A stretch of 64,000 nucleotides of DNA, from the IMG/VR virus record IMGVR_UViG_3300022723_000184, positions 1-64,000 of that record. One strand, written 5' to 3'. The stretch comes from a virus (taxonomy: Duplodnaviria > Caudoviricetes). Under the pieces are notes generated by a model. The model did not search any database. It was not told the origin of the DNA and was given only the letters and a program-made list of their open reading frames with translations. Positions 5,187 through 53,654 of this stretch are shown piece after piece. Each line of letters begins with the position of its first letter. The stretch's first letter is position 1. Both the position numbers and the translations under genes were made by a program.

Positions 5187-5221
5187 AGATCGTCGTGATC
5201 CTGGAGCACTGGCTGTAGGAG

Positions 5222-5279
5222 GTCTCATCTTCCAGGCCGATGAGCGGGCATTGCGACCCTGGTCAGTATAACTTTCAAC
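5222..5279 (+). repeat. 58-bp hairpin/promoter-like element, copy 1
   Basis: Identical to 7620..7677. CTCATC/GATGAG inverted repeat followed by GTCAGTATAAC. Confidence 0.9.
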
Positions 5280-5609
5280 GCACGTAGGAGTAAGAGACGG
5301 CTTCTCGACGTGGTAGGCCCTTCTTTGGACGCCTTGGACCATGGGAAGCCGTTAGGGCCAAGGTGGATGGCCGGGAACCGGACACCGCTGGCCTGGGTCA
5401 TGCCTGGCACAAAAGCCCACGTCGACCATGACCCCGGACCGCCGCCGTGCGGGTGGATCCACGGGAGACCATTAAGGTCGCCAGGGATCTCCTTCCTCCC
5501 CCACACTGGCACGAACCATCCTATCAGGGTGTAAATGGCTGAAACGCCGTGGTGCGGCGGTCCAGCTCCTGCCATGCGCCAGGACAGAGCCGGACACTCG
5601 ACTGACAAT

Positions 5610-7013: not shown

Positions 7014-7619
7014 ATGGTCGTTTGTGAAGATCCTCACTGGGCGTACTACGCGCCGCCCAAGACCGGGACACGCACGGTTCTCGACCGGCTCAAGCACTGC
7101 GGCTGGCGACAGCACGAGGGCAACAAGCACGAGATCGCCGTGCCCCCCGACTACAAGAAGTACTTTCACTTCGTCACGGTGCGTAACCCGTTCAGCCGGA
7201 TGGTGAGCATCTGGTCGCACCTCCAGAACAAGATCATCAGCAAGTGGCCGACGCCCCACCGGCAGCGGCTGCACGACGAGACGCAGGGCCTGAGCTTCGA
7301 CCAGTTCCTGCACGATGAGCGGTGGTCGGCTTGGGACATTGAGAAGACGGTTCGCATGCAGTGCGAGTACCTGAGTGCGATGCCCTTCGTCAACCACGTG
7401 ATCCGGCACGAGACTTTCGAGCAGGATTTCCGCCAGCTGCCGTTCGCCGGCCGCAGCGACAAGCCGTTGCCCCGGCTCAACAAGGGCCTGTACCGCAAGG
7501 ACAAGCCTTGGTGGGAGCATTACACGATGTCCGGCGAGCAGCTGGTGCGTGAGCGGTACGCCGAGGACTTCCAGGCGACCGGCTATTCGATGTCGTTGGA
7601 CGAGGCGATCGCTGTCTGA
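7014..7619 (+). CDS. Sulfotransferase family 2 protein
   Basis: PKTGTRT 5'-phosphosulfate loop and VRNPFSRMVSIW 3'-phosphate motif. Confidence 0.85.
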   Translation: MVVCEDPHWAYYAPPKTGTRTVLDRLKHCGWRQHEGNKHEIAVPPDYKKYFHFVTVRNPFSRMVSIWSHLQNKIISKWPTPHRQRLHDETQGLSFDQFLHDERWSAWDIEKTVRMQCEYLSAMPFVNHVIRHETFEQDFRQLPFAGRSDKPLPRLNKGLYRKDKPWWEHYTMSGEQLVRERYAEDFQATGYSMSLDEAIAV

Positions 7620-7677
7620 GTCTCATCTTCCAGGCCGATGAGCGGGCATTGCGACCCTGGTCAGTATAACTTTCAAC
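7620..7677 (+). repeat. 58-bp hairpin/promoter-like element, copy 2
   Basis: Identical to 5222..5279; begins immediately after the sulfotransferase stop. Confidence 0.9.
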
Positions 7678-7791
7678 AAACTCGCGAGTAGGGCTAACTC
7701 CTAATAGAATGGGGGGTAGCAACGCCCATAGGTAGCTCGGGCGTTTCGGGCTACAATACCCACATGTCCCGAAGACAAGGAAGTCTGGTGG

Positions 7792-26757: not shown

Positions 26758-27001
26758 CAAGAAGAAAAAGAAGAAGACCAAGGCCCCGGCCACCGTCCTG
26801 TTCACCAGTGAGAAGAACGAGAACGGCCGGCGGCAGAAGTGCGTGTTCGCCCAGTGCCACTTCAGCGGGTACGGCGCCGGCCCCGTCTGGGGCCACGGCG
26901 ACAACTCGGTCAAGAAGGTGTTGGCCCAGCTCACCGCCGAGTGCGACTGCCCGGCCCGCTACCACCAGAACAAAGAGCAGCAGGGAAAGCGTATAATCTG
27001 A
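26744..27001 (+). CDS. Small basic hypothetical protein
   Basis: Poly-Lys N-terminus; several Cys/His residues. Confidence 0.55.
   Translation: MAFGNKKKKKKTKAPATVLFTSEKNENGRRQKCVFAQCHFSGYGAGPVWGHGDNSVKKVLAQLTAECDCPARYHQNKEQQGKRII
26992..26997 (+). promoter_or_regulatory. -10 hexamer upstream of the tRNA-like gene
   Basis: TATAAT 19 nt before the acceptor stem; no clear -35. Confidence 0.55.
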
Positions 27002-27015
27002 CGCCTACAGTGTGC

Positions 27016-27135
27016 CGATCGGTAGCTCAGAGGGCGGATGGAGGACGGGTGGGTAAGCACACCCAGATTCCGATGCCCGCGGCAGAGCGGCGGGGACTAA
27101 CCCGAGAGTCGCAGGTTCGAGTCCTGCCCGATCGA
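27016..27135 (+). tRNA. Atypical tRNA-like RNA with about 50-nt D-loop insertion and 6-nt anticodon loop (GACUAA)
   Basis: 7-bp acceptor stem CGATCGG/CCGATCG, TA-GCTC...GAGC D-stem, GG dinucleotide and T-arm GCAGG-TTCGAGT-CCTGC. Anticodon stem CGGG/CCCG resembles tRNA-fMet. No encoded CCA. Confidence 0.75.
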
Positions 27136-27137
27136 TT

Positions 27138-27211
27138 TGACAGCCGGAGAGACGGCACCCCTGCACGGCCAAGCACAGCGGGTAGAGCCTGACAGCTGGG
27201 AAAAGACCGGC
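27138..27211 (+). repeat. Two TGACAGC-hairpin elements with purine-rich loops
   Basis: TGACAGCCGGAGAGACGGC (27138) and TGACAGCTGGGAAAAGACCGGC (27190). Confidence 0.55.
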
Positions 27212-27231
27212 CGAGTCTGGTTTCTCCTCCG

Positions 27232-27268
27232 CCCTGCGGTCCCAACCCTACGGGACCACAGGGTTTTT
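27232..27268 (+). terminator. Intrinsic terminator
   Basis: CCCTG-C-GGTCCC/GGGACC-A-CAGGG stem, then TTTTT. Confidence 0.75.
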
Positions 27269-27271
27269 CAT

Positions 27272-27301
27272 TTGGCTGGTTCCCGGCCCTGGTGCTACAA
27301 T
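27272..27301 (+). promoter_or_regulatory. Sigma70-like promoter with TGn extension
   Basis: TTGGCT-N18-TACAAT, with TG one base upstream of the -10. Confidence 0.55.
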
Positions 27302-27304
27302 CCC

Positions 27305-27513
27305 GGTGAAAGGCTTTGCCGAGGGCGCCGGCAGGTAGGAGTGGCTCGGGTAGGCATGAGGCCGAACCCGGCCCGGCACGGCAGCATGGCGAGAAGGCCG
27401 GCTGTTAGGTGGAGCGGCGGGGCGCCCGGTAATTCCCGTCGCATTTGGCTCAGACTCGCCCGCGGCGACCTGGGTCACGGACCTGAGGGTAGGGGATCCT
27501 CAGGGGGCCTTTT
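27305..27513 (+). ncRNA. Candidate structured ncRNA
   Basis: About 210 nt between a promoter and a terminal CCTGAGG/CCTCAGG hairpin plus U-run. Three further hairpins; no credible ORF. Confidence 0.45.
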
Positions 27514-27545
27514 CTTCTGAACAGGAAGTCAGGAGCGAGCCGTCG

Positions 27546-33808: not shown

Positions 33809-36800
33809 GTGACGACCATCTCGAACAACCTGTTCGACCAGGACCCTGCCAACTCGATCCTCCCGGATCCGAGTTTTCCACAGCCCGTCCCCAAACCGGC
33901 TCCTCAGGAGGAAGAGCCGGAAATGCGGCGTTTTGGCGACCCGATTGCCACACGCCGCGCCATTTACGACAGGGTTTTCCAGGCGGCCCAGGAGATGGAG
34001 CCGGTCGTGGGCCAGACCCACACGCTGCGACTGTCCAACCTCAACTGGGCGGATCCCGAGGAATACTCCAAGCGGAAGCGGAAGGAAGCGATCCTCTCCG
34101 GCCAGACGCTTGGTCGCCGTCTTCGCGGGACCTGGGAGTTGGTCAACAACGAGACCGGTGAGGTCCAGGACCGCACGGACAAGACGGTCGCTCGCATCCC
34201 TTACGTGACGGGCAGCGGGACGTTCGTCCACCGGGGCAACGAGTACGCGATCAAGAACCAGCAGCGGCTGCGGGCCGGCGTGTTTACCCGGGTCAAGGAC
34301 AACGGGGAGGTCGAGGCCCACGCCAACATCCTCCGCGGCGGCCCGAGCCACCGGTACTTCCTGGACCCGGCCAAGGGTGTGTTCTACATGCGCCTCGGCC
34401 AGGCCAAGATCCCAATGATGCCCCTGCTCAAGGCGATGGGTGCGACCGACGCCCAGCTGCGTGAGGCTTGGGGCCCGGAGATCCACGCCGCCAACTACGG
34501 GGCCAACGACGCCAGCGCCCTGGTCAAGCTCAAGGAGAAGATCCTCAAGGACCGCTCGGCGAAGCAGGAGGAACTGGTCTCGGCCTTCAACCAGATGGAG
34601 CTGGACCCGGAGGTCACGCAGCGGACGCTGGGCCAGCCGTACGAGAACATGGGCCTCGACACGCTGCTCGACACGTCCAAGAAGCTGCTGGCGGTCAGCC
34701 GGCAGGAGGCAGACGTCGACGACCGCGACCACCTGGCCTACCAGACGTTCCTGGGTCCCGAGGATCTGCTCGCCGAGCGGATCCGCAAGGACCGGGGCGG
34801 CGTCCGCCGCAAGCTGCTGTGGAAGCTGGCCCGAGAGGGCAACCTGAGCAAGTTGCCGGCCGCCGTGCTCCAGGACCAGGTGGACAGCGCCCTGCTCGAA
34901 TCGGGCCTGGGTCAGGCCCTCGAAGAGATCAACCCGGCCGAGGTCTTCGACAAGCAGACCCAGATCAGCCGGATGGGTGAGGGCGGCATCCCGTCGCTGC
35001 AGGCGGTGCCCGACGAGGCCCGCGGCGTACAGCCCAGCCACATGGGCTTCATGGACCCGCTGCGCACCCCCGAGTGTTACGACGAGCAGACGGAGGTCAT
35101 GACGAAGCAGGGATGGAAACCGTGGCCTTCCGTTACCGAGAGTGATGAGTTCGCTTGTCTGGTGGACGGTCGTCTGGAGTTTCATCTCGCAGACAAACTG
35201 GTGTCGTACCGGTACGTCGGGCAGATGTGTGGCGCGAAGACAGCCTTGGTCGACTACCTGGTCACGCCGGACCACCGCATGTACGTTCGCCGCGGTTACG
35301 ATACACCTCACTGGCGGATCGAGACGGCGAACGAGACGCATGAGGCTCATGTTCGGATTTTGAAATGCGGCGGCCACTCGCCTTACGTCGGGATGGCGTT
35401 CGATCCCGGTCTACCTGTCTTTGAGTCGCGGTCGAACAACAGCAAGGCGATCGACCTGGCGACCACGGACCCGTGCGACTGGGCGGAGTTTGTCGGGTGG
35501 TACCTGTCGGAAGGCAACTTGGCTGTTTCCGAGTCTAGACAGTCTTATAAGGTCATGATCACTCAGAGCCCGGAAGCGAACCCGGAGAACCATACCCGGA
35601 TCCGGGACTTGTTGGATCGTCTACCGTTCGACTGGTCTTTCTGTAACCACGAGAAAGCATTTGTCGTGAGCCGCCGCCACCTTTATGAGTGGGCCAAACC
35701 GCTAGGAAAGTGTGACGACAAATTCATTCCCGCTCGTTGCTTCGATTGGCCCGAGGAAGCTCGTCGATCGTTGTTGGAGGGTCTGTTACTGGGCGACGGC
35801 CGTAAGGCAGTTAAAGGCGGCAGAGTGGGCCGGCCCACACAGTACTGTTCGACTAGCCGCAGGCTGGCTTATGACGTTCAGAGGCTGTTGTTCACCCTTG
35901 GTGTCTCGTCCCGGGTGGTATTCGAGCCGGACGAACGGGAGGATCACTATCTCGGATGCTGGGTCGTGCATATCCACGCGAGAACGCAGCGGCGAGTTGG
36001 TCGTGCTCATGCAGCTAAAGAAAGCGATTTCCACCTGGAGAGTTACGACGGTCATGTCTACTGCGCTTCTGTTCCTGGTGGGCTTTTGTACGTGCGTCGC
36101 AACGAGAGCTGCGGCATTTGGTGCGGCAACAGCTTCCGGGTCGGTGTCGACGTGCACCTGGCCCGCAATGCCCGCAAGGGGCGTGACGGCAAGCTCTACG
36201 CCCAGTTCCGTGACGCCCGGTCGGGCAAGGACGTGTGGCGCACGCCGCAGGACGTCGCCGACCTGGCCGTGGCGTTCCCCGGCTCCATGAAGTCGGAGGC
36301 CAGGCGGGTGCCGGCCATGAAGAACGGCCGGATCCGGTGGGTGCCCAAGGAGAAGGTTGACCTGGTGCTCAGCACCTTCGAGAACGCCTTCAGCCCGTTG
36401 GGCAACATGGTCCCGCTCAAGAGCATGGTGAAGGGCCAGCGGGTGGCGATGGCCAGCCGGATGAGCGTAACGGGTGACGCCTGGGTTGTAGTGCTGCGAA
36501 AATCTGGTGACGCCTATTACGGCCCGATACGAGATTACGTGTGGAGGAAAGGCGACAAGTCTCCGTCTATCGATAAGGTTACGCACCGGCTGGTGTGGAA
36601 ACCGGTGCGAGCTAAGCTAGTACACCGGAACACGAAACGTCTTATGCGGGTGACGGTTGATAGCGGTAGGAGCTTTGTTGCTACTGAGGATCACAGTTGC
36701 GTTACGCTAGGTAAATCTGGACGTCTTGAAAAGATTAAAACCGGTGATTTATCTAAAGGCCTACCCGTTCCTTATGCCGCGACGCTTGATTGCCCCGAGA

Positions 36801-39800
36801 CGTACCAGAAAACGTGGAATGTGCCGAACGGAAACAAGCACAACGCCCATCCGGGTGTCGCGTTTCCGTTAACACGGGATGTAGGCTGGTTTTTGGGGTT
36901 GTACGTTGCCGAGGGTTACGGGGTCGGCAAAGATGCTCGCGCTGTGGCGCTTGCTAACATCTCTCCCGAAGTGCAGACCAGGGTTTGCCGGTTTATGGCT
37001 GACATTGGTTTGTGCGTGAAGCCGTCTTCCGGCAGCGACGGGGTGAACGACCGGGTTGTTATCAACTGGCTGCAGTTATACAGAAAGTTGCGAGAGGATT
37101 TCGGGGACGGGGCTTATAACAAAAGGCTTCCCGCCTGGGTGCATTTTTCGCCGAAAGCGTTCCGGGAAGGTCTGTTGTCGGGATACATGGCTGGCGATGG
37201 GATCGTATCGAAACCAGTAGCCCGTTCAACAACAACCGGCGGCGGCAGCCGCAGCCTGGACCTGGTCAACGGGTTGACGCTTCTTTGTGCGTCACTCGGT
37301 ATTTCAACGTCTGTGTCCTCGCCCTGGGTTAATACCGGCCCGGGAGGATCCCGGGTGCAACAACACAAGTTCACGATACGTAAAGAGCACCAACATCTAC
37401 TCCCCGTGATCGGCCACCCGGAAAAAGACAAAAAAATGCAACGGTCGTCGTGGTCGGGCAAGCGGTCTTACGACTGGATACCGATTTTCGACGACCTTAG
37501 ACCTATGTTTAATCGGCGAACGCAGCGTCGCGACAACCGCCGCCGGCGGCTGGATAACCGTTATATGGGTCGCTTGGATCGCCGCGACGTAATCGACTTA
37601 TTTGGGGATGACGCGGAGTGGGCTACCAGGGGTTGGTCGTCGTCGTCTGTCTGGTGGGATCGGGTGAAGCGGGTGGACGAAGTCAGTTCGGACCATGAAT
37701 TCGTTTATGACCTTGACATGGAAGACAACGTGTTCCTGGCCAACGGCGTGTTTGTGCACAATACAACGCAGGCCCTGCCCGTGGCTAACCCCGAGGCGCC
37801 ACTCGTCCAGTCGGCGGTTCCCGGCAGCGGCGGGGCAATCAGCTTCGAGGACGAGTACGGATCGCACATGGGTGCGGTGCGTGCCGATCAGCCCGGTCGC
37901 GTGGTGGCGGTCACCGACGACGAGATCACCGTGCAGTACGCCGACAACAGCCGGGCGAACATCGAGCTGTACAACAACCATCCGTACAACCGTAAGAGCG
38001 TGACCGGTGACACCGAGATTCTGATCCGCAGAAGGGCGGAATCTGGGCGGTCGAGGCAAGGGCTTTACATCTGGCGAGGCCCGATTCGCGAGTATCAGTG
38101 GCGAGACGACGACTACGTCCTTTCGGTGTGTCCGAAAACGAAGCAGTCTGCGTGGAAGAAGGTCATCGCGAAAACGGCTCATCCCAACGACAAACGTCTG
38201 TTGCGGGTGAAGACAGCGTCCGGCCGTCATGTTGTGGTGACCGAAGACCACAGCCTGGTGACGATGGGTAGCGATGGAACACTCGTGCCTATCTATCCGG
38301 ACGATTGCCAGGTCGGCAAGACACGGTTGCCTGTGGCTAAGATCCCCGAAATGGTCTCGTCGAAGACGTATCCGGGCAAGTCTCGTAACGACGGTCGCGT
38401 GGTCGGCCTATACCTTGCGGAAGGGCACTGCCCGCCCAGTCAGCCAAACCTGGTGACGATTTCGGTTGAGCCGGACGATCGGGCAGAGACGGTACTGGCT
38501 TTGTTGAGAACCGTTTCGGAGGGCTACGAGCCGTTCCGAAACGGCGGTACCGTTTGTATGACGGCGCCGAAACTGGTCAAGAGGTTGGTGAAACAGTTCG
38601 GACACCGGTCACACAACAAGAAGATCCCGTCGCGATTCCTTCGGTACCCAGCCGAGTTCCGAGAAGGACTGGTCGAAGGGTACATGGGTGGCGACGGTTG
38701 CTTTTGGAAGGACGGAAACGGCGGGACTAATTTGGAGGCGACCAGTGTTTCGCGGGAGCTTCGGGACAACCTCGTCGACCTGCTGCTGTCGTTGGACGTG
38801 TTCACGACGCTGAAGACGTCGCCAAGGAAAAAGTACAAGGATGCGTGGCGGGACGGGTATCGCTTCCGCGTCTTGTCCGGGGAGCTACACAAGCTGCCCC
38901 GATGGTTCGTGTACGACGATCGAGAGGAACGGTTGAACGAATCCATCGATTCGCAGTACCGAGCTTCCGTGTACGAGATGGTTCCGGTCCCCGATAAAGA
39001 AGCCAGGACGCTCGTCTATGCCGGCTTCGACAAGACGCCGCTGCAAGGAAAAGTTGCCAAGCACAGGCTGGCCGGATCCAAAAGCGTGTTCGGCAAGTGG
39101 GGTGTCTCTGACGTCATGTGGGATGAGATCGTGGCGATCGAATCGGCGGACCACGAAGAGGAGGTCTACGACCTTTCCGTGCAAGACTCGGAGATGTTCG
39201 CTGTTTGTCACGGCCTGGTCGTACACAACACATACATCCATCAGACGCCGACGGTCCGGCCTGGCCAGTCCTTCAAGGCCGGAGACCTGCTTGCCCGGTC
39301 GAACTACACCAACGACCAGGGCGCGACGGCCCTGGGCGTCAACGCCCGCGTTGCTTACGTGCCGTGGGGCGGCAAGAACTTTGAAGACGCCATCGTGATC
39401 TCGGACTCCATGGCCAAGCGGTTGAGTTCCGAGCACATGTACCAGCACGACCTTGAGATCAGCGCCCGGACCCGCACTGGCAAGAACACCTACCTCTCGC
39501 TGTTCCCCGGCAAGTACGACAAGAAGACCCTGGAAAACATGGACGCTGACGGCGTCGTCAAACCAGGCACAGTCGTGCAACACGGGGATCCGCTAATCCT
39601 GGCTGCCGAAGAGCGGAGCCGGGCGCTGAACAAGGTTCACAAGAAGCGTCAGCCTGGCTTCCAAGACAACAGCATCACGTGGAAGCATCACGACGAAGGC
39701 GTGGTGACCGATGTGGTGAAGACCAAGAACGGCCCGGTCGTCTTGGTCAAGGGCCGGCAGGAGATGAAGGTCGGCGACAAGATGTGTTACGACCCGGAGA

Positions 39801-40831
39801 CTAGCCTACTCACGCGGCAAGGTTGGAAGCCTGTTGCGGAGGTTACGCTCGACGACGAGTTGGCGACGCTGAACCCGGAAACGGAAGAACTGGAGTACCA
39901 CAAACCAACTCACGTGCACTCGTTTGCTCACACGGGGGAGATGTACTACCTGAATACCAAGCACCTCAACATGCTGGTGACGCCGGAGCATCGCTTGTGG
40001 GTTGCTCGTCCGGGCCAGACCTACGGCGAGGTGACGGCTAAAGACTTCTACGAGTCGAAGGGCGAATGGCAGTTCAAGAAAGACTGCAAGTGGGTTGGCG
40101 AAGAACGCTTGTTGATGGAGTTCGAGCCGTACATCGCGAGGAACAGTCGAGAGCAAGTCCTGGAATCTGTACCCATGGACATTTGGCTCAGGTTCATCGG
40201 GTATTACCTGTCAGAGGGTCGAACTTGTCGTACTTCGAGCGGCGGGTATCAGGTGCAGATCAGCCAGTTCCGAACGTCTTCGGTTTGGGAGGACATTCAC
40301 GACACGCTGGTCGAGCTTGGTCTGCGTTTCTCGTACCGAGAAAACGAAAATAGGTTTGAGATCAACTCCAAGTGGTTGTACGGGGTGTTGCTGCCGTTGG
40401 GCAGCGATGCGTACTCGAAGCGAGTGCCGGAATACGTACAAGAACTGTGCTCTCGCCAGATCTCCGTCTTGTTCGATTCTTACATGGAAGGAGACGGACA
40501 TAAGGGGGCGTGCTGGGAGTTTGGAACGTCGAGCGAGCAGTTGGCTTTCGACCTTCAAGTGTTGTGTTTGAAGTTGGGCTGGTGTGTCAAGTTGAAGCCC
40601 GTCGACCGTGAAGACAACCTTCAAAAGAACCCTCACTGGCGGGGCCGAGTTAATCGTTCTCATCTGCGGCCTTGGTGGAAGAAAGGGCAGGCAAAGACCT
40701 ACGCGTCCAACGAAGAGAAGATGGTGCAGTACGACGGCGAGGTCTACTGCGTGACAGTTCCCAATCACATCGTTTATTGCAAGAGGGAGGACAAAACGTA
40801 CTGGTCGCTGAACAGCGGCCGGTACGGCTAG
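33809..40831 (+). CDS. rpoB: Multi-subunit RNA polymerase beta-like subunit (N-terminal/main part) with 4 inteins
   Basis: After removing inteins: DPLRTPE|SFRVG, QRVAMASRM|TTQALP, PYNRK|TYIHQTP, GKNFEDAIVIS, KVGDKM|SGRYG. Ends at TAG inside the GRxG(N/D)KG motif. Confidence 0.92.
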   Translation: MTTISNNLFDQDPANSILPDPSFPQPVPKPAPQEEEPEMRRFGDPIATRRAIYDRVFQAAQEMEPVVGQTHTLRLSNLNWADPEEYSKRKRKEAILSGQTLGRRLRGTWELVNNETGEVQDRTDKTVARIPYVTGSGTFVHRGNEYAIKNQQRLRAGVFTRVKDNGEVEAHANILRGGPSHRYFLDPAKGVFYMRLGQAKIPMMPLLKAMGATDAQLREAWGPEIHAANYGANDASALVKLKEKILKDRSAKQEELVSAFNQMELDPEVTQRTLGQPYENMGLDTLLDTSKKLLAVSRQEADVDDRDHLAYQTFLGPEDLLAERIRKDRGGVRRKLLWKLAREGNLSKLPAAVLQDQVDSALLESGLGQALEEINPAEVFDKQTQISRMGEGGIPSLQAVPDEARGVQPSHMGFMDPLRTPECYDEQTEVMTKQGWKPWPSVTESDEFACLVDGRLEFHLADKLVSYRYVGQMCGAKTALVDYLVTPDHRMYVRRGYDTPHWRIETANETHEAHVRILKCGGHSPYVGMAFDPGLPVFESRSNNSKAIDLATTDPCDWAEFVGWYLSEGNLAVSESRQSYKVMITQSPEANPENHTRIRDLLDRLPFDWSFCNHEKAFVVSRRHLYEWAKPLGKCDDKFIPARCFDWPEEARRSLLEGLLLGDGRKAVKGGRVGRPTQYCSTSRRLAYDVQRLLFTLGVSSRVVFEPDEREDHYLGCWVVHIHARTQRRVGRAHAAKESDFHLESYDGHVYCASVPGGLLYVRRNESCGIWCGNSFRVGVDVHLARNARKGRDGKLYAQFRDARSGKDVWRTPQDVADLAVAFPGSMKSEARRVPAMKNGRIRWVPKEKVDLVLSTFENAFSPLGNMVPLKSMVKGQRVAMASRMSVTGDAWVVVLRKSGDAYYGPIRDYVWRKGDKSPSIDKVTHRLVWKPVRAKLVHRNTKRLMRVTVDSGRSFVATEDHSCVTLGKSGRLEKIKTGDLSKGLPVPYAATLDCPETYQKTWNVPNGNKHNAHPGVAFPLTRDVGWFLGLYVAEGYGVGKDARAVALANISPEVQTRVCRFMADIGLCVKPSSGSDGVNDRVVINWLQLYRKLREDFGDGAYNKRLPAWVHFSPKAFREGLLSGYMAGDGIVSKPVARSTTTGGGSRSLDLVNGLTLLCASLGISTSVSSPWVNTGPGGSRVQQHKFTIRKEHQHLLPVIGHPEKDKKMQRSSWSGKRSYDWIPIFDDLRPMFNRRTQRRDNRRRRLDNRYMGRLDRRDVIDLFGDDAEWATRGWSSSSVWWDRVKRVDEVSSDHEFVYDLDMEDNVFLANGVFVHNTTQALPVANPEAPLVQSAVPGSGGAISFEDEYGSHMGAVRADQPGRVVAVTDDEITVQYADNSRANIELYNNHPYNRKSVTGDTEILIRRRAESGRSRQGLYIWRGPIREYQWRDDDYVLSVCPKTKQSAWKKVIAKTAHPNDKRLLRVKTASGRHVVVTEDHSLVTMGSDGTLVPIYPDDCQVGKTRLPVAKIPEMVSSKTYPGKSRNDGRVVGLYLAEGHCPPSQPNLVTISVEPDDRAETVLALLRTVSEGYEPFRNGGTVCMTAPKLVKRLVKQFGHRSHNKKIPSRFLRYPAEFREGLVEGYMGGDGCFWKDGNGGTNLEATSVSRELRDNLVDLLLSLDVFTTLKTSPRKKYKDAWRDGYRFRVLSGELHKLPRWFVYDDREERLNESIDSQYRASVYEMVPVPDKEARTLVYAGFDKTPLQGKVAKHRLAGSKSVFGKWGVSDVMWDEIVAIESADHEEEVYDLSVQDSEMFAVCHGLVVHNTYIHQTPTVRPGQSFKAGDLLARSNYTNDQGATALGVNARVAYVPWGGKNFEDAIVISDSMAKRLSSEHMYQHDLEISARTRTGKNTYLSLFPGKYDKKTLENMDADGVVKPGTVVQHGDPLILAAEERSRALNKVHKKRQPGFQDNSITWKHHDEGVVTDVVKTKNGPVVLVKGRQEMKVGDKMCYDPETSLLTRQGWKPVAEVTLDDELATLNPETEELEYHKPTHVHSFAHTGEMYYLNTKHLNMLVTPEHRLWVARPGQTYGEVTAKDFYESKGEWQFKKDCKWVGEERLLMEFEPYIARNSREQVLESVPMDIWLRFIGYYLSEGRTCRTSSGGYQVQISQFRTSSVWEDIHDTLVELGLRFSYRENENRFEINSKWLYGVLLPLGSDAYSKRVPEYVQELCSRQISVLFDSYMEGDGHKGACWEFGTSSEQLAFDLQVLCLKLGWCVKLKPVDREDNLQKNPHWRGRVNRSHLRPWWKKGQAKTYASNEEKMVQYDGEVYCVTVPNHIVYCKREDKTYWSLNSGRYG
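35075..36130 (+). mobile_element. Intein beta-1 (LAGLIDADG, 352 aa)
   Basis: CYDEQTEV...TPDH; LSEG and LLGDG endonuclease motifs; ends GN before Ser. Confidence 0.9.
36464..37762 (+). mobile_element. Intein beta-2 (LAGLIDADG, 433 aa)
   Basis: SVTGDAW...TEDH; YVAEG and MAGDG; ends VHN before Thr. Confidence 0.9.
37997..39229 (+). mobile_element. Intein beta-3 (LAGLIDADG, 411 aa)
   Basis: SVTGDTE...TEDH; YLAEG and MGGDG; ends VHN before Thr. Confidence 0.9.
39785..40813 (+). mobile_element. Intein beta-4 (LAGLIDADG, 343 aa)
   Basis: CYDPETS...TPEH; YLSEG and MEGDG; ends LN before Ser. Confidence 0.9.
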
Positions 40832-40833
40832 GT
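40826..40833 (+). other. Out-of-frame junction inside the beta conserved motif (candidate ribosomal hop site)
   Basis: GGC TAG in frame 2; GGT GAT AAA GGA in frame 1 starting at the G of TAG. Confidence 0.7.
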
Positions 40834-43800
40834 GATAAAGGAGTTGTTGCCGCGATCATCCCCGACAACCAGATGCCCCACGACAAAGCGGGCAGCCCGT
40901 ACGAGGTGCTGCTCAACCCCCTTGGGGTCATCAGCCGCTGTTACGACGAGCAGACTGAGTTCTTGACGGATCGAGGCTGGGTGTTTGGTCGTGACGTTCA
41001 TCAAGACGACCAGTTCGTTTGCTACCACGTCTGGACCGAGAACCTGTACACAATGCCACAGTTGGAGAAGTTTCACGTTGCGGACTACACAGGCAAAATG
41101 CTGAAGTTTGAGAACAAGCTCATGGACTTCTGCGTCACGCCGAATCACCGCATGTGGGCTGCTTGTGGATACCCCGGCGCGCCATGGCAGGAAGTGACGG
41201 CCGAGCGAATTTTCGACCGAAACGGGTGGAAGGTGCCTGTGGCCGGAAACCCGGTACCCGGTGAAGATCGGGACTTCGTGTTGCCGCAGATCGAGCGCCA
41301 CGTGAAGGATACGCAGTCGTCTGTAGAAGAAATTGTGATTGAAGCCGGGGACTGGGCCGAGTTCCTTGGTTGGTACGTGGCCGAAGGTAACGCCGACGAG
41401 AAAGTCCACATCTCTCAGAGTATCGAGGCTAATCCGGAAAACTGTAGCCGGATCGAGGAGCTGTTGAATCGCCTTCCGTTCGCCTGGAACTACAACGCGA
41501 AGAACACGCAGTTCCACATCACATCGAAGCGTCTTTGTGAGCACCTGAAACCGTTGGGGCTGTGTGATGAGAAGCACGTCCCGGACTGGGTCTTCTCGCA
41601 GAGCCCAGAGACACGGCAGCGGTTCCTAGATAGCTATCTGGCCGGTGACGGCGACAAAGATCAGACGAACAGAGACCATGCGTATTGGGGCGCCGGTACA
41701 ACGTCAAAACAGTTGGCGCAGGACCTCCAGCGACTGCTTATCTACCAAGGCTATTCGGCGAATACGTCGAAGCAGCCTTCGGGTATGTGGCGGGTCGGTA
41801 TTCACGCTAAACGGCACCGAATCTTGGAGAAACAGAACTGGGCCGAAGTTGACTACGACGGTAAGATCTATTGCCCGACGGTGCCAACCGGGTACATCGT
41901 GACTCGCCGCAACGGAAAGGTTTTGATCGCGGGCAACACCAACCCGGCCCAGATGGTGGAGGCCGCGTTGGGCAAGCTCGCCAAGCACCGCGGCCAGCCG
42001 ATCAAGGTCGAGGACTTCGACGAGAACATCGAGGACATGACTGAGTGGGCCAGGGATCAGCTGCGTAAGGCGGGGCTCTCGGACACCGAGGACATTGTCG
42101 ACCCTAGCACCGACAAGAAGATCAAGGGGATCAACACCGGCAACCGCTTCTTCATGAAGCTGCACCACACGGCGGAATGTTTTGACGATCAAACCGAGGT
42201 ACTTACAAAGCGAGGGTGGGTCTCGTGGGTTGATGCGCGAGACGATGATGAGTTCGCGACGCTTGATGGCGGCGACCTTGTTTATGAGCAGGCCGAGCGG
42301 GTAGTTCGCAGCGAGTACTACGGGCAATTGTGTTGTTTTGAGGGCAGATACCTTGACTATGCCGTTACCCCGAATCACCGACTCTGGTTGAAATCTTATA
42401 ACTGGCAAAAGGAGTGGGGGTTTCGCGAGGCCGGTGAGGTTCATGGGCGGCGGTTCTCTGTGCAACAATTCGGTCCCTCGGCGGCAGGTAACAATCCCGC
42501 AACCACTAAGATCGGCGATGACGACGTGGATTGGGATGATTACGCGGAGCTTGTTGGGTGGTGGGTCACTGAGGGGTACGCCAAGGTTACGCGTCGCCGG
42601 GCCTGCGTGATGATCTATCAAAGTGAATCCGCGAACCCGGAAAAACTTGCTAGGATTGAGGAGCTTGTGGCTCGTTTGCCGTGGCCCTGGCATTATTACA
42701 AAGTAAAAGGCGAGATTTTCGGTGTTGGCATTAGTAGTAGGGCACTTGCTGAGCATTTGAAGCAGTACGGAACACATTCACACAATAAGCGCTTACCGCG
42801 GCATCTCCTTGAGGGAGGATTGACCGGGCGACAGCGACTATTCGCGTCGATGATGGATGGCGACGGCAATCGGCAGACCACGCCGACTGGAAACATGGAA
42901 AGATTCACGACGACCTCTAAGGGGTTGGCAGATGATTTTCAGGAGTTGTGTGTTCGATCCGGATTCGGTGCGGTTATCCGCCCGGTTAAGCCGAGGAAAG
43001 AGACGCATTATTTGCCTGCGTGGACTTGCGGCGTCGCGTTGTCGCGAACAACCGCCCAGATCGACGGTGACCGCAATCTGGGCGGGTTCTCCCTTCGCAT
43101 GTACAAAGGCGTTGTTTATTGCGCAACGATGCGAACGGGGATGCTATATGTTCGGCGTAACGGTAAGCCGATGTGGAGCGGTAACTCCAAAGGACAGGGA
43201 CGTGGATCCGGAGGTTATACGGCTGAGGATGCACCGGCGAAGGGCGGCGAGACGGGCAGCAAGAGAATTGCGCTGCTCGATGTTAACGCCCTCCTCTCCC
43301 ACGGCGCTACAGAGGTTCTTCGGGATGCTTCTGCGATTCGCGGGCAGAAAAACGAAGACTACTGGCTGCAGTTCATGCAGGGCTACACACCTAAGCAGCC
43401 GAAGGTCCCGCTCGTCTACGAGAAGTTCGTCAACGAGCTGAAGGGCGCCGGGATCAACGTGGTGCGTGACGGGACGCAGACCAACATCATGGCGCTGACC
43501 GATGACGACATCGATCAGCTGGCCGGCGACCGCACGATCAAGTCGGGCGAGACCGTCCACTTCGACAAGGACCTCAAGCCGATCCCGGGCGGCCTGTTCG
43601 ACCCGGCGGTGACCGGCGGTCACCACGGTCGGCGGTGGGCCGCGATCAAGCTGGCCGAGCCCATGCCCAACCCGGTGATGGAAGAGCCGATCCGTCGAGT
43701 GCTCGGGCTGACTGGCAAGAAGTTCCAGGACATTATCGCGGGCAAGGACACGCTGCCCCGTTACGGCACCGGGCTGCGGGCGATTTCCGAGGCACTCGAA

Positions 43801-45868: not shown

Positions 45869-46794
45869 GCGTCATGTCCGATCACCCCAAGAACACGAAC
45901 CACATCTACGGCAGCAACAACAAATCGGTCGTCGACAACCGGCATGGTGACCGAAAGGGCAGACCGGGTCAGCCATTGAAAGCGAACCCGAGTTACCTAA
46001 CGAACAAGGACAACCCGTCGGCCGACAAGTACTACCGCAACCCGACGGAGGGCGGCCAGGAGGTGGCCCCGAACTCCAACGTTTCGACCAGCTCTTACCT
46101 CCACCCGCAGAGCACGGCTCCCCTCTCGCTCACGAACGAAGCGGACATGGGCGGGGTCTTCGACCTGATCCTCGGCCGCCTGCGTTCGGGCCAGGCCAAG
46201 GTGATCGTCCAGGTGACCGACGCCAACCTGGAGCGGCGTCTCGACGCCCGCCTCGACATGGCCCAGGCCCGCCAGCAAATTGACAACCGACAGCGTGCCG
46301 CCGTCCAGATCGGGCGCCCCGCTGCCTTGTCCGCGGCTACCGTGGCCGCCCCGACGCCCACCCCGACCACCGAGCGTCAGGCCGACGACGACCTGGCGTC
46401 CGACATCGACCCGGAGGCCTACGTGAACGGCGAGCTGCCCGAAGACGCGATCGACACCAACGCCTCGGCCGTGGCCGTCATCGAGGGCCCGGAGGCAGGC
46501 ACCGACGAGGGCGAGGACCTGGGCGAGGAGCCCGGGCCCGAGGGCGAGCCCGGCGAACCGCAGGCCTCGGACGGGGACGGCGGGGACGATGACGACGATG
46601 ACGACGACGGCGATGACGGGGACGACGATGACGACGAGGAGGAGGATGACGACGATGGCGAAGAAGAAGCTCCGGAAGGCGAGGAAGACGAAGAGGACGA
46701 GTTCGGCGACGTGCTAGACGACGTCGAAGAAGAACTCGACGACGACCTGGCGGACCTCGACGAAGAGCCCGAGTCTCATCTTCCAAGCCGATGA
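45865..46794 (+). CDS. Protein with very acidic low-complexity C-terminus
   Basis: D/E tract from about 46560 to 46770; ends SHLPSR inside repeat copy 3. Confidence 0.75.
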   Translation: MSVMSDHPKNTNHIYGSNNKSVVDNRHGDRKGRPGQPLKANPSYLTNKDNPSADKYYRNPTEGGQEVAPNSNVSTSSYLHPQSTAPLSLTNEADMGGVFDLILGRLRSGQAKVIVQVTDANLERRLDARLDMAQARQQIDNRQRAAVQIGRPAALSAATVAAPTPTPTTERQADDDLASDIDPEAYVNGELPEDAIDTNASAVAVIEGPEAGTDEGEDLGEEPGPEGEPGEPQASDGDGGDDDDDDDDGDDGDDDDDEEEDDDDGEEEAPEGEEDEEDEFGDVLDDVEEELDDDLADLDEEPESHLPSR

Positions 46795-46840
46795 GCAGGC
46801 ATTGCGCCCGGTCAGTATAACTTCAAAAGTACTTTTTGAA
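46773..46840 (+). repeat. Hairpin/promoter-like element, copy 3, plus AAAAGTACTTTT palindrome
   Basis: GTCTCATCTTCCAAGCCGATGAGCAGGCATTGCGCCCGGTCAGTATAACTTCAAAAGTACTTTTTGAA, directly upstream of the beta'-C gene. Confidence 0.85.
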
Positions 46841-52800: not shown

Positions 52801-53604
52801 AAGTTCGGGCGGTTCGCGGGCAAGGCTGGGCGACTCGCTGGTCCGTTGGGCCTGGCGGTCGCCCCGCTGGAGTTCGGGATCCGTGGCGGCAGCGAGCTTT
52901 ACGACATGGCCACGGGTCAGGACACCTTCGGGAACATGGTCGACCAGCGGCTGCGGGACGCTGGCAACTGGCAGGGGCCGACGGGTTATGCGGGCGCCGT
53001 GCTCAACACACCGTTCAGTCCGTCGAGCGTGGCGGCCTTGGGCAAAGCCAAATACGACCTGGCGATGGCCCCCATCCAATCGTTTGCCCAACGACGCCAA
53101 TCGCTGGCCGCGGGCAACCGGCTCAACGAGCAGCTGGCCGAGAACCGCGAGGCGGCGGGTGGCGTCGACGAGCTGCTGCAGCACGCTCCGAAGGACATCG
53201 CCAGCCGGTACGCCCGGAAATACGTGGACGACACGCCCTGGTACGGTCTGGGCGGGTTCAATCCGTTCGTGAACGATCAGGGCCGCATGACGTGGGTCGA
53301 CAAGGGGACCGGCGAGGAAGCTGGTTCCGGGGCCATGCAGGCGATCGAGCAGGTCAAACAGCAGAACCAAGATCGTGAAGCGGCACAGGAGGCCGCGAGG
53401 TACGCGAGGCAAAAACCGCAGCAGGCCGCGGTGGTCCAGGCGAAACCGGCTGCTCCGGCACCCGCTCAAGAGGCCCGTGCGGCGTCGCTCCTCGGCAACC
53501 CGATCTACCGACAAGTGCTCAGCCAGGTCAGCGCCCAGAGCCCGGAAATGGGAGCGATGCTCCTGCTGTCAGGTGCCGATCCGTCTCATCTTATGGGCCG
53601 ATGA
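46858..53604 (+). CDS. rpoC: RNAP beta' C-terminal part with 3 inteins and a ~460-aa non-RNAP C-terminal extension
   Basis: ATVGQLLVN, GARKGVM|STKFATQEAGFLSKQL (bridge helix), IGLAAAQAL|SEPLSQAQL|SAKHSGG (trigger loop). A Gly/Ala-rich tail follows QKEAE. Confidence 0.92.
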   Translation: MKATVGQLLVNDALPEDMRDYQMVLDKKGVRNLMADLARKHPEDYREVSHKLSQIGWRSAQESGGYSFGLEHMLKSKTGRETRQRIQKKINEILADDRLTDEQREQLILKHIGKEREAMQSGIFDEARAAKNPLAMQVLGSGRGNPMNLSSLLGSDLLYTDQRDRLIPIPVLRSYSEGLSPAEYWAGTYGARKGVMCLAKGTQVLMADYTDKPIEKVKPGDWVMGSDRQGRMTPVRVIRRYYNGVQPCYRYRFRKNSCRLPSSHRTLVATEKHKVLATVKAGRPGSTYAHRSIYVPTPLPLEAARLLKNPVKNEYVATPAAGEAGEQSRVREPSALLYGLMLGDGCMAESTRGRYLLSCNDPLLLDDLREYISLFDVFLDKAGGDNYNYTLAGDGGAAVAVDLKTRLGEKLAHDKELPEGCFAWDDVSVGQLLGGLFSTDGSITGRNGNATIKLTLSSRRMVEQVQRLLELRLGIWSGGLIFTAKEKKKNATHDQWGFAVSHAASVARFFARVPLYGKKRVQAKRIAATMKPDHSNGSPGFKIYDREPAGEIATYDLEVDHPDHLFVLSSGLVVSNSTKFATQEAGFLSKQLNQMGHRLVVTDEDGDGEPDSLRGLPVDVDDPDSAGSLLAHDAGGYKRNTVITPKILHNLRRQGLKRILVRSPTVGGSPEGGIYSRDAGVREKGGLPGRGENIGLAAAQALCLSGGTRVQMANGEVKAVEDVKPGDVVLGCSVDGVLRPVPVLDACFSGIKSCVKALFRRGTGKAAKDNLLELVATPEHKILSEIVVRSGRGSVKRVPYFDPVAVRPLGTKIPHEKRSGGDRFCAKLASSFDDTGLGVQPLAFLLGLVIGDGCYSGSANCVGFSCYDPVLAADVGAYLKPLNFEIKNNTDNEYRVVDTTHRQVKRREDGSWYRSRLIELLRVEGMFGQTSSIKTLPKSVHSWDNASVAALIAGLLVTDGYVISTGGLGFGSNSKCLLDGVRQLLGLRWGVWGSSVISSTKKRADGDEYAPNWRFTVNRRDDVNLLRSILPVAGVKRGRLDSLLSKWNSKRRSARGAPRVKGRCTRISLERVGELPTYDLYIAHPDHLFVLANGLVVSNSEPLSQAQLCLAAGTLVRMADWTVKRIEQVRADEQIMGADKSGRLFPVRVVRVYDNGERECVRTVFREAKTKQHVDLVSTGDHKLLSKTRHWAIPSERVEHGVFPVARKCVGYSAKMPFAVVNDHGCAEPFAGLCGLLLGDGGYTVSVHGVHWSCFEPDLVEEMQPYLAGLGLKATKLQGHEGHEGYYRISQVEDAIRQDPETGRVLPGDRNPALIWLKQHRMYGKYAHEKEIPEEIWSWDQNSVARLLGCLFATDGSVYPPTQRPDELYINFSSTSLELAKQVKELIQVRFAIHSSSIGSHKGKRKRKLYSFTITRKEQVRRFASRIAVPARKGQMLADYLPKLQEDESTEYFHRQRQEPVGTVATYDLEVDHPDHLFVLANGLIVSNSAKHSGGVAGSEKAVSGFDYINQLIQVPKKFKGGAAHAQVDGIVSRIEEAPAGGKYVVINNEKHYVGPDFSLKVKRGDEIEAGDVLSEGIPNPSEVVRHKGVGEGRRYFTQAFRQAMHEAGIHASRRNVELLGRGLIDHVRMTDEYDQYVPDDVVPYSALEHRWQPREGSRRVPYKQAVGKYLERPVLHYTIGTKIRKSMLKDFEDFGVEELETHDEPPPFEPEMIRGMYSVQHDPDWMTRMYGSGQKKSLLSAVHRGGTSDELGTSFVPGLARGVDFGRQGLVTPPAPPQKMGSDMQKEAEGMWGTGAIPGSPNFNLQQQARQSYNVGNSMLSSMRGGGGVGPATAGDANRFRQYLSSFAAAPGPTGAPAGQAAASVARPAAATAGSAATGNGLTTADWHAWSAGPMGAGAATKAGTRPLAAAALRYAPAVAKAPGIRNLVGAMARPSAAAQALSGVKPQMPGTVSKWLRPGYHQYATKVLGQSHNLAQGAGKFGRFAGKAGRLAGPLGLAVAPLEFGIRGGSELYDMATGQDTFGNMVDQRLRDAGNWQGPTGYAGAVLNTPFSPSSVAALGKAKYDLAMAPIQSFAQRRQSLAAGNRLNEQLAENREAAGGVDELLQHAPKDIASRYARKYVDDTPWYGLGGFNPFVNDQGRMTWVDKGTGEEAGSGAMQAIEQVKQQNQDREAAQEAARYARQKPQQAAVVQAKPAAPAPAQEARAASLLGNPIYRQVLSQVSAQSPEMGAMLLLSGADPSHLMGR
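47446..48585 (+). mobile_element. Intein beta'-1 (LAGLIDADG, 380 aa)
   Basis: CLAKGTQV...TEKH; MLGDG and FSTDG; ends DHPDHLFVLSSGLVVSN before Ser. Confidence 0.9.
48964..50154 (+). mobile_element. Intein beta'-2 (LAGLIDADG, 397 aa)
   Basis: CLSGGTRV...TPEH; VIGDG and LVTDG; ends HPDHLFVLANGLVVSN before Ser. Confidence 0.9.
50182..51321 (+). mobile_element. Intein beta'-3 (LAGLIDADG, 380 aa)
   Basis: CLAAGTLV...TGDH; LLGDG and FATDG; ends DHPDHLFVLANGLIVSN before Ser. Confidence 0.9.
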
Positions 53605-53654
53605 GCAGGCATTGCGATCTCGGTCAGTGTACCCTCAAAAGCACTTTCGAAAAG
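53583..53654 (+). repeat. Hairpin/promoter-like element, copy 4 (diverged)
   Basis: GTCTCATCTTATGGGCCGATGAGCAGGCATTGCGATCTCGGTCAGTGTACCCTCAAAAGCACTTTCGAAAAG. Stem arms intact, loop changed. Confidence 0.8.

Follow-up and report, generated by a model that had tools for sequence, protein, structure and literature searches.

What use could a phage have for a complete transfer RNA (tRNA) body that appears unable to decode? The question is raised by a 120-nucleotide (nt) element at positions 27016–27135 (+ strand) of a 64,000-nt stretch of viral DNA (Duplodnaviria; Caudoviricetes; positions 1 to 64,000 of IMG/VR record IMGVR_UViG_3300022723_000184), hereafter the window. The element consists of a full tRNA body with an extra arm in the D-loop and a shortened anticodon arm. 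Much of the conflict between phages and bacterial immunity is now recognised to be fought over tRNAs, and those encoded by phages are usually explained as supplementing codons or replacing host tRNAs that have been cleaved. A phage that has no working tRNA and nevertheless keeps a complete non-decoding tRNA body would point to a use of the tRNA shape itself. We hold with moderate confidence that the element is a maintained, separately terminated gene for a tRNA-derived, non-decoding RNA from a lineage of phage tRNAs with a D-loop arm, for which a role as decoy or sponge is the most plausible.

The cloverleaf with its additional arm is the unconstrained minimum-energy fold of the element (−54.2 kcal/mol, z = −2.9), and none of 200 dinucleotide shuffles equals it. 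The landmarks listed in an initial annotation of this DNA, namely a 7-base-pair (bp) acceptor stem, U8-A9, a GCTC/GAGC D-stem, GG and a T-arm, were all recovered in sequence and fold, and its D-loop insert of about 50 nt, described as an irregular hairpin, was resolved as a 47-nt arm of three helices (Table 1). The nucleotides of the tertiary core are present without exception (U8, A14, G15, G18-G19, A21, C48, T54-T55-C56, A58, and C61, besides G26), including the pair G15:C48 and U8.A14. Compared with a canonical bacterial or phage elongator tRNA (RF00005), the element has the same acceptor, U8-A9, D-stem, G18-G19, A21, G26, 5-nt variable loop and UUCGAGU T-arm, with the 22-nt distance between D-stem and T-stem that is typical of class I tRNAs; it differs by the D-loop arm, by a 6-nt anticodon loop devoid of U33, as annotated, and by a G27.A43 opposition. 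The anticodon arm is the sole non-canonical part of the tRNA body proper, since it does not follow the canonical scheme of 5 bp, a 7-nt loop, U33, and a purine at 37. The letters CUA, which the initial annotation had pointed out, do occur in the loop, but placing them at 34–36 requires an alternative 7-nt register that leaves two stem pairs and A33 and is not credible; the stable register reads G + ACUAA. The noted likeness to initiator tRNA held only in part, as 1:72 is paired and 11:24 is C:G in the window element. The predicted arm shows an RNA that would be non-decoding by any standard route.

Standard tools overlook the element. At default settings, ARAGORN calls neither a tRNA nor a transfer-messenger RNA (tmRNA), be it in the window or across the full virus record of 201,946 bp, and no Rfam family reaches threshold for the element, the tRNA model RF00005 giving 14.4 bits where 29 are needed. 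A strict scan for a T-arm and a closing 7-bp acceptor stem identified it as the only tRNA-type gene of the uncultured, ~202-kilobase (kb) phage. Acceptor and T-arm alone are a weak criterion, because shuffled genomes yield ~0.4 such strict matches each; with a relaxed acceptor, the real genome gave 24 matches, compared with 621 from 30 shuffled genomes (~21 each). All four extra landmarks (U8-R9, a 4/4 D-stem at tRNA distance, GG, and a hairpin at the anticodon position) were found in one of the 24 real matches and in none of the 621 controls, which confirms that the element is real and far beyond chance. Upon in-silico removal of the arm, ARAGORN reads the window copy as ‘tRNA-??? (ct)’ with a two-base ‘anticodon’, still a non-canonical call. 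A class II topology, in which the insert would be the anticodon arm and the short arm a long variable arm, was rejected: ARAGORN proposes it, as Gly(GCC) with a 32-nt intron, only at lowered thresholds, the landmarks GG-N-A-GAGC-R and the variable loop flank the short arm, and covariation with the homologue described below fits the D-loop-arm model. The arm is not a dispersed repeat or mobile hairpin either, as no second copy was found in the window.

Conservation of the structure was assessed via the neighboring 2H phosphoesterase (2H-SAK), for which 276 relatives were found and the DNA around ten was fetched. One of these ten contigs, metagenome contig L126 (2H-SAK protein 77% identical), carries the element at the same position and with the same layout including the D-loop arm (L126 1686–1803, 65% identical). 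The L126 unit comprises, in order, TATACT 10 nt 5′ of the element, the element, an encoded CCA, a second tRNA, and a terminator. A structure-guided correspondence of both copies covers 36 modelled pairs, 22 of them identical, three changed on one side, and six changed on both sides with pairing kept; the other five are open in one copy or the other, such that 35/36 are paired in the window and 32/36 in L126. Double changes fall into the acceptor (4:69 and 7:66), the D-stem (12:23, U-A in the window copy and A-U in L126), the T-stem (50:64, C-G and G-C, respectively), and one pair in each of two arm helices, the arm helices altogether displaying two double and three single compensatory changes. 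RNAalifold, run on an automatic alignment, independently found three double changes. These compensatory substitutions relative to a syntenic homologue show, at the level of the two aligned sequences, that body and arm are maintained under structural selection, which is not the picture of a decayed pseudo-tRNA that the initial annotation had considered. Within the anticodon arm, one of ten stem bases differs between window and L126, whereas the loops GACUAA and CUGUUAC differ at most positions; judged by this alignment, the contrast of a kept stem and a changed loop is unlike the even decay of a dead gene. Once its arm is removed in silico, the L126 copy is called tRNA-Asn(GUU) by ARAGORN at 63 of 77 deletion boundaries.

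To place the GACUAA loop, we scanned for ACTAA at the right distance from a T-arm and obtained 41 loci, most of them tRNAs with the loop Y-U-ACUAA and the anticodon ACU. Among these, L103 is a D-arm element with Y-U-ACUAA (ACU) that has G27.A43 and an identical T-arm in common with the window element, and the window loop equals the YUACUAA loop of L103 and L015 minus one base. An unrelated phage of 33% GC harbors, at L220 4743–4815, a solitary, perfect 72-nt cloverleaf lacking a D-loop insert, with a 5-bp stem and the identical GACUAA loop, which ARAGORN by default calls ‘tRNA-??? (ct)’. L230 combines G27.A43 with 4 bp and ACUAA, and L243 has 4 bp and a 6-nt loop. By comparison of these loops, the window loop lacks one base of an ACU-type loop, and a phage unrelated to it has acquired or kept the identical short loop. 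As a separate observation, about two dozen viral contigs (L202–L240, e.g., L210 6872–6945 and L228 5993–6065) harbor tRNAs with Y-U-ACUAA, anticodon ACU, and hence A34, several Y-U-ACUAA tRNAs having strong promoters and imperfect acceptor stems. An ACU anticodon with A34 is very unusual in bacteria.

The D-loop arm recurs in other viral contigs. IMG/VR was searched for TAGCTCAG, a 35–65-nt gap, GAGC, an 18–26-nt gap, and GGTTCGANTCC, yielding more than 116 loci, and a filter for closed acceptor and T-stem left at least 56 distinct sequences among the matches listed. After removal of artefacts consisting of a 5′ fragment plus a whole tRNA and of units whose D-arm is already normal, at least ~35 distinct viral elements remained among the matches listed, all with a genuine D-loop insert, a closed acceptor, and a split GCTC/GAGC D-stem. 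The census rests on two strict exact-match patterns and on classification by hand. The likeness of these members to the window element is one of design and does not imply homology. Most members have GG-N-A directly before GAGC-R26 and an AGGUC-type variable loop, neither of which was demanded by the pattern. Some reside within tRNA arrays and some are solitary.

Two classes were distinguished. Class A (n = 16 among the matches listed) has a 5-bp/7-nt anticodon arm with U33 and a defined anticodon, for example Ile-GAU in L027 and L042 and Asn-GUU in L022, and the L126 copy is of the same design. ARAGORN detects none of the 16 as they stand and all 16 as ordinary tRNAs after removal of the insert. 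Class A and the window element share the insertion point (15/16 to G18), the body, and the failure of tRNA finders until the arm is removed; class A, however, keeps the 5-bp stem, the 7-nt loop, U33, and the anticodon, which the window copy does not. Class B (~20 among the matches listed) has short anticodon arms, several being 6-bp stems capped by UUCG, GUGA, GCAA, or GGAA, while the total distance from D- to T-stem stays near the tRNA value; the window element, with its two G.A oppositions taken as pairs, obeys this length rule (1+6+4+6+5 nt). A second scan confined to shorter-than-canonical distances returned 28 loci in total, 22 of them known from the first. Short arms are kept between L046 and L084 (79% identical), whose stems differ by a G-C to A-U exchange and whose loops measure 8 and 4 nt, and L013 and L061 (75% identical) have the same 6-bp stem with unlike loops. 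We also observed a subfamily of D-arm elements without an anticodon (L044 9365–9474, L058, L094 1571–1679, L242 from 536 on the − strand, and L106 6735–6844), which have the acceptor GGGGAAG/CUUCUCC-A in common and vary widely in inserts and anticodon arms. In L044, L058, L094, and L242, this acceptor corresponds to the alanine identity set of G3:U70 and A73, used also by tmRNA, while L106 has G3:C70.

In the proposed scheme of a maintained, non-decoding RNA, the transcript would go through the maturation of a tRNA: cleavage by host RNase P, 3′ trimming, and CCA addition by the host enzyme. A stable L-shaped RNA would accumulate that could not engage the ribosomal decoding centre and would occupy a host or phage protein recognising the tRNA body via acceptor end, T-arm, or elbow. 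Most plausibly it would serve as a decoy or sponge for a tRNA-targeting factor, and the D-loop arm might add binding surface or block access to the elbow. A bolder proposal, which we consider doubtful, is that such RNAs constitute an undescribed phage class of armed tRNA bodies with shortened or sealed loops, soaking up a tRNA-recognising host defence, a toxin, or another tRNA-binding enzyme without disturbing translation; in that case, selection would have favored GACUAA as a non-functional version of an ACU-type loop.

Several observations weigh against a maintained non-decoding gene, and some of them lend themselves to its main rival, a recently disabled D-arm tRNA that descended from a decoding ancestor like L126 (GUU) or L103 (ACU), lost one loop base, and has a body not yet decayed. 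We regard this rival as unlikely, though not far-fetched. The L126 copy has a canonical 5-bp/7-nt anticodon arm with GUU and an encoded CCA; with this lone homologue being canonical, the short loop, the lost CCA, and G27.A43 of the window copy could be recent damage, and the window loop, as said, is one base short of that of L103 and L015. The second tRNA of the L126 unit is gone in the window phage, which fits the loss of a tRNA cluster. In L128, L149, L152, L155, and L156, all closer relatives in the flanking genes, the small upstream open reading frame (ORF) leads directly to the leader of the 2H-SAK gene and the element is absent, so that it is an accessory gene, dispensable for the clade. 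L126 is the only true homologue found: no more were recovered with an exact T-arm/acceptor pattern, with leader-motif anchors in viral and metagenome collections, or with a shared-segment pattern, and no cultured phage relative was found. The promoter consists of a −10 box only. Short-arm elements, although they recur, are rare under the strict 22-base pattern, with about two dozen contigs among 2.9 million, and no protein family was found to recur beside class members, so that no partner is indicated. What speaks against recent disablement is that 35/36 pairs remain closed although the homologue is 65% identical, with both sides exchanged in a compensatory manner in six of the modelled pairs, and that a loop differing from L126 at most positions above a nearly unchanged stem is not a single recent lesion. 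Furthermore, G27.A43 occurs in L103 with a normal loop and is hence no sign of damage, the GACUAA loop recurs in the unrelated L220 phage, and −10 box and terminator have been retained.

The remaining explanations account for parts of the element. In one that we judge rather unlikely, the tRNA body serves as a scaffold for processing and stability, and the inserted arm is the functional part, either as a protein-binding hairpin or as a small regulatory RNA; engineered tRNA scaffolds and the tRNA-microRNA chimeras of herpesviruses are analogues. The conserved arm structure with its compensatory changes, the wholly unlike arm sequences of other class members on a canonical chassis, and an anticodon arm that is dispensable in many of them are compatible with this idea, but no conserved motif or target of the arm was found, the arm is unlike the repeated hairpin units elsewhere in the window, and armed class A members look like ordinary decoders, so the arm alone implies no effector role. 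It is improbable that the RNA is an RNA-repair cofactor, similar to the predicted b7a-tRNA or the tRNA-like module of YrlA, that acts with the adjacent 2H phosphoesterase (PF22547, E = 3.5e-12) and the InPase/HAD phosphatase, a PNK-phosphatase-like protein. tRNA-like RNAs have been proposed to assist RNA ligation, according to bioRxiv 10.1101/312249, which cites Burroughs and Aravind 2016. However, of the repair and tRNA partner genes searched for in the 202-kb record, RtcB, TROVE (Ro60), Rnl2-type ligase, Band-7, peptidyl-tRNA hydrolase, CCA-adding enzyme, and class IIa synthetase are all absent; many relatives keep 2H-SAK and InPase in the absence of the RNA, the trend already being that its presence is uncorrelated with repair genes; and a separate promoter and a conserved leader precede the 2H-SAK gene. 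An intron-containing pre-tRNA, from which the 47-nt insert would be spliced after transcription, was also suggested in the initial annotation and found no support, being the least probable of all explanations on the sequences at hand. The insert does split an otherwise canonical D-arm, and its removal renders the 16 class A elements and the L126 copy callable; yet at 47 nt it is far below the size of group I or II ribozymes and matches no Rfam ribozyme, its helices covary like a retained structural domain, and a 6-nt anticodon loop remains after removal. Moreover, the −10 box, the rho-independent terminator, and csrA in relatives point to a bacterial host, and protein-dependent tRNA splicing is not known in bacteria.

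A special decoder, i.e., a short-loop tRNA reading UAG or a two-base codon and thereby shifting the frame, is very improbable as well. The idea draws on the CUA in the loop, on the doublet reading reported for wild-type tRNA-Ser3(GCU) (PMC12202706), and on an RNA polymerase beta-like gene (33809–40831, continuing to 44877) that is broken at 40826–40836 (GGC CGG TAC GGC TAG GT GAT AAA) such that a net −1 shift is needed. The break lies inside the invariant GR(H/Y)G(N/D)KG motif, which reads SGRYGDKGV without interruption in relatives G001 and G002. Decoding of UAG is excluded as a route to the conserved product because residues would be added inside an invariant catalytic motif; the relatives instead imply that five bases, TAGGT, are skipped rather than decoded, and the earlier suggestion that the window loop reads this UAG is contradicted. 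From the sequence, either a bypass from one matched Gly codon (GGC) to the other (GGT) omits these bases or the assembly is in error. Amber suppression and recoding of TAG were rejected on two grounds, the CUA register discussed above and the ordinary use of TAG as a stop: TAG ends 77 of 267 confident ORFs (29%) with high GC at third codon positions (GC3), and ORF coverage under the standard code is 96%, so there is no stop-codon reassignment. The homologous L126 RNA, in addition, has a GUU anticodon. A candidate CUA suppressor tRNA in relative G002 was dismissed, since its loop CTTCTAA is that of Arg(UCU). With a compensated body, a 6-nt loop lacking U33, and TAG as a normal stop, the sequence evidence supports the view put forward in the initial annotation that the RNA is a tRNA-derived mimic and not a decoder.

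Known tRNA-like RNAs resemble the element in part. Like tmRNA, it keeps acceptor stem and T-arm on a non-decoding RNA, but tmRNA has a reduced D-arm and, in place of the anticodon arm, pseudoknots and a tag reading frame, whereas the window element retains D-stem and anticodon stem and has A:U at 3:70; no tmRNA was called for it by ARAGORN even at a lowered threshold or matched in Rfam. YrlA and b7a-tRNA, as described in bioRxiv 10.1101/312249, are non-decoding tRNA mimics, and the window element likewise adjoins enzymes of RNA-end processing. YrlA is, however, circularly permuted, has no free acceptor end, and has Ro60 as its partner; the ends of the window element lie at its acceptor stem, no TROVE gene is present, and no YrlA match was obtained in Rfam. 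According to the same source, b7a-tRNA is defined by adjacency to RtcB and Band-7 (Burroughs and Aravind 2016), neither of which is encoded in the 202-kb record. In the literature searched, including a review of non-canonical tRNAs (PMC7609411) and a survey of 10,006 candidate viral RNAs (PMC10690425), we found no description of a D-loop arm or of a natural six-membered anticodon loop, nor was a D-loop arm found as an architectural feature in Rfam. As read from its sequence, the element is a combination of a D-loop arm and a non-decoding anticodon arm on one tRNA body. The D-loop arm hides such genes from standard tRNA finders, and phage annotations therefore omit them systematically. With a partner identified, the element would represent a new kind of viral tRNA mimic; it would also be a natural case of an elbow site that accommodates a large insertion, which is of interest to tRNA engineering. 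The tRNA cluster of phage T4 contains two stable RNAs resembling tRNA, ‘species 1 and 2’, that have no known function and mature along with the tRNAs; for the window element they are a lead only.

Table 1 Features of the tRNA-like element and its transcription unit in window coordinates.
Feature	Position	Strand	Remarks
−10 hexamer TATAAT, perfect	26992–26997	+	18 nt 5′ of the first base of the RNA; poor −35
Acceptor stem, 5′ strand CGATCGG (RNA CGAUCGG)	27016–27022	+	7/7 Watson-Crick pairs with CCGATCG at 27128–27134
U8-A9	27023–27024	+	
D-stem GCTC/GAGC	27025–27028 with 27085–27088	+	4/4 pairs
D-loop arm, 47 nt	27032–27078	+	Between A14-G15-A16 and G18-G19; in minimum-energy fold
Arm helices GGGCG/UGCCC, UGGAG/UUCCG, GGGUG/CACCC	27032–36/27074–78, 27039–43/27068–72, 27047–51/27060–64	+	
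Arm terminal loop GGUAAGCA	27052–59	+	
D-loop 3′ part G-C-G18-G19-C-A21, then D-stem 3′ strand GAGC	27079–27088	+	
G18-G19-C-A	27081–27084	+	
Hairpin at anticodon position, CGGG/CCCG	27091–27094 with 27101–27104	+	4 G-C pairs
Anticodon loop GACUAA, 6 nt	27095–27100	+	U33 absent
G.A mismatch (27:43)	27090/27105	+	Foot of anticodon hairpin
Variable loop GAGUC (C48) and T-arm GCAGG-UUCGAGU-CCUGC	27106–27127	+	T-arm alone 27111–27127
Acceptor stem, 3′ strand CCGAUCG, and discriminator A (27135)	27128–27135	+	TTT next; CCA not encoded
Spacer, 95 nt, element to terminator	27136–27230	+	No tRNA features; L126 has its second tRNA at this place
Intrinsic terminator, hairpin CCCUGCGGUCCC...GGGACCACAGGG, then UUUUUCAUUU	27231–27275 (hairpin ~27231–27264, then U tract)	+	From fold

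The element is located in a region (27002–27545) that is non-coding by GC3 frame plot. Upstream, genes for a phosphoribosyltransferase-like protein and a sulfotransferase and two ORFs without assigned function are found, the last one ending at 27001; the 2H-SAK and InPase/HAD-phosphatase genes follow downstream. Of the promoter that the initial annotation had assigned to the element, the perfect −10 hexamer stands, while the −35 region is poor and a scan for two-hexamer promoters did not call TATAAT at 26992–26997. The downstream terminator likewise exists as a hairpin with a U tract, not adjacent to the element but 95 nt beyond it; its identity with the L126 terminator is 85%, and an internal mismatch caused a simple terminator scan to miss it.

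Further structured units are present nearby. Region 27272–27545, 5′ of the 2H-SAK gene, contains a second promoter (27272–27301, TG-extended, TACAAT) and a conserved structured leader to which eight relatives align, with conserved hairpins GGCUUUGCCG..CGGCAGG and one around CAUGGCGARAAGGCCG. Four of the leader pairs are altered on both sides, three of them in the helix closing the second hairpin, and a match was not found in Rfam. A csrA gene is located just 3′ of 2H-SAK in relatives. In L126, the second tRNA (1808–1879) is a nearly canonical 72-nt tRNA, Ile-type with GAU but with C33, and two more small promoter-terminator units (1940–2130 and 2200–2365) lie before the leader. Elsewhere in the window, a unit of ~70 nt occurs in four copies (5220–5292, 7618–7690, 46771–46832, and 53581–53653), each with a hairpin CUCAUC..GAUGAG followed by TTGCGA-17-TATAAC; it looks like a repeated hairpin-plus-promoter module, whose hairpins the D-loop arm does not resemble.

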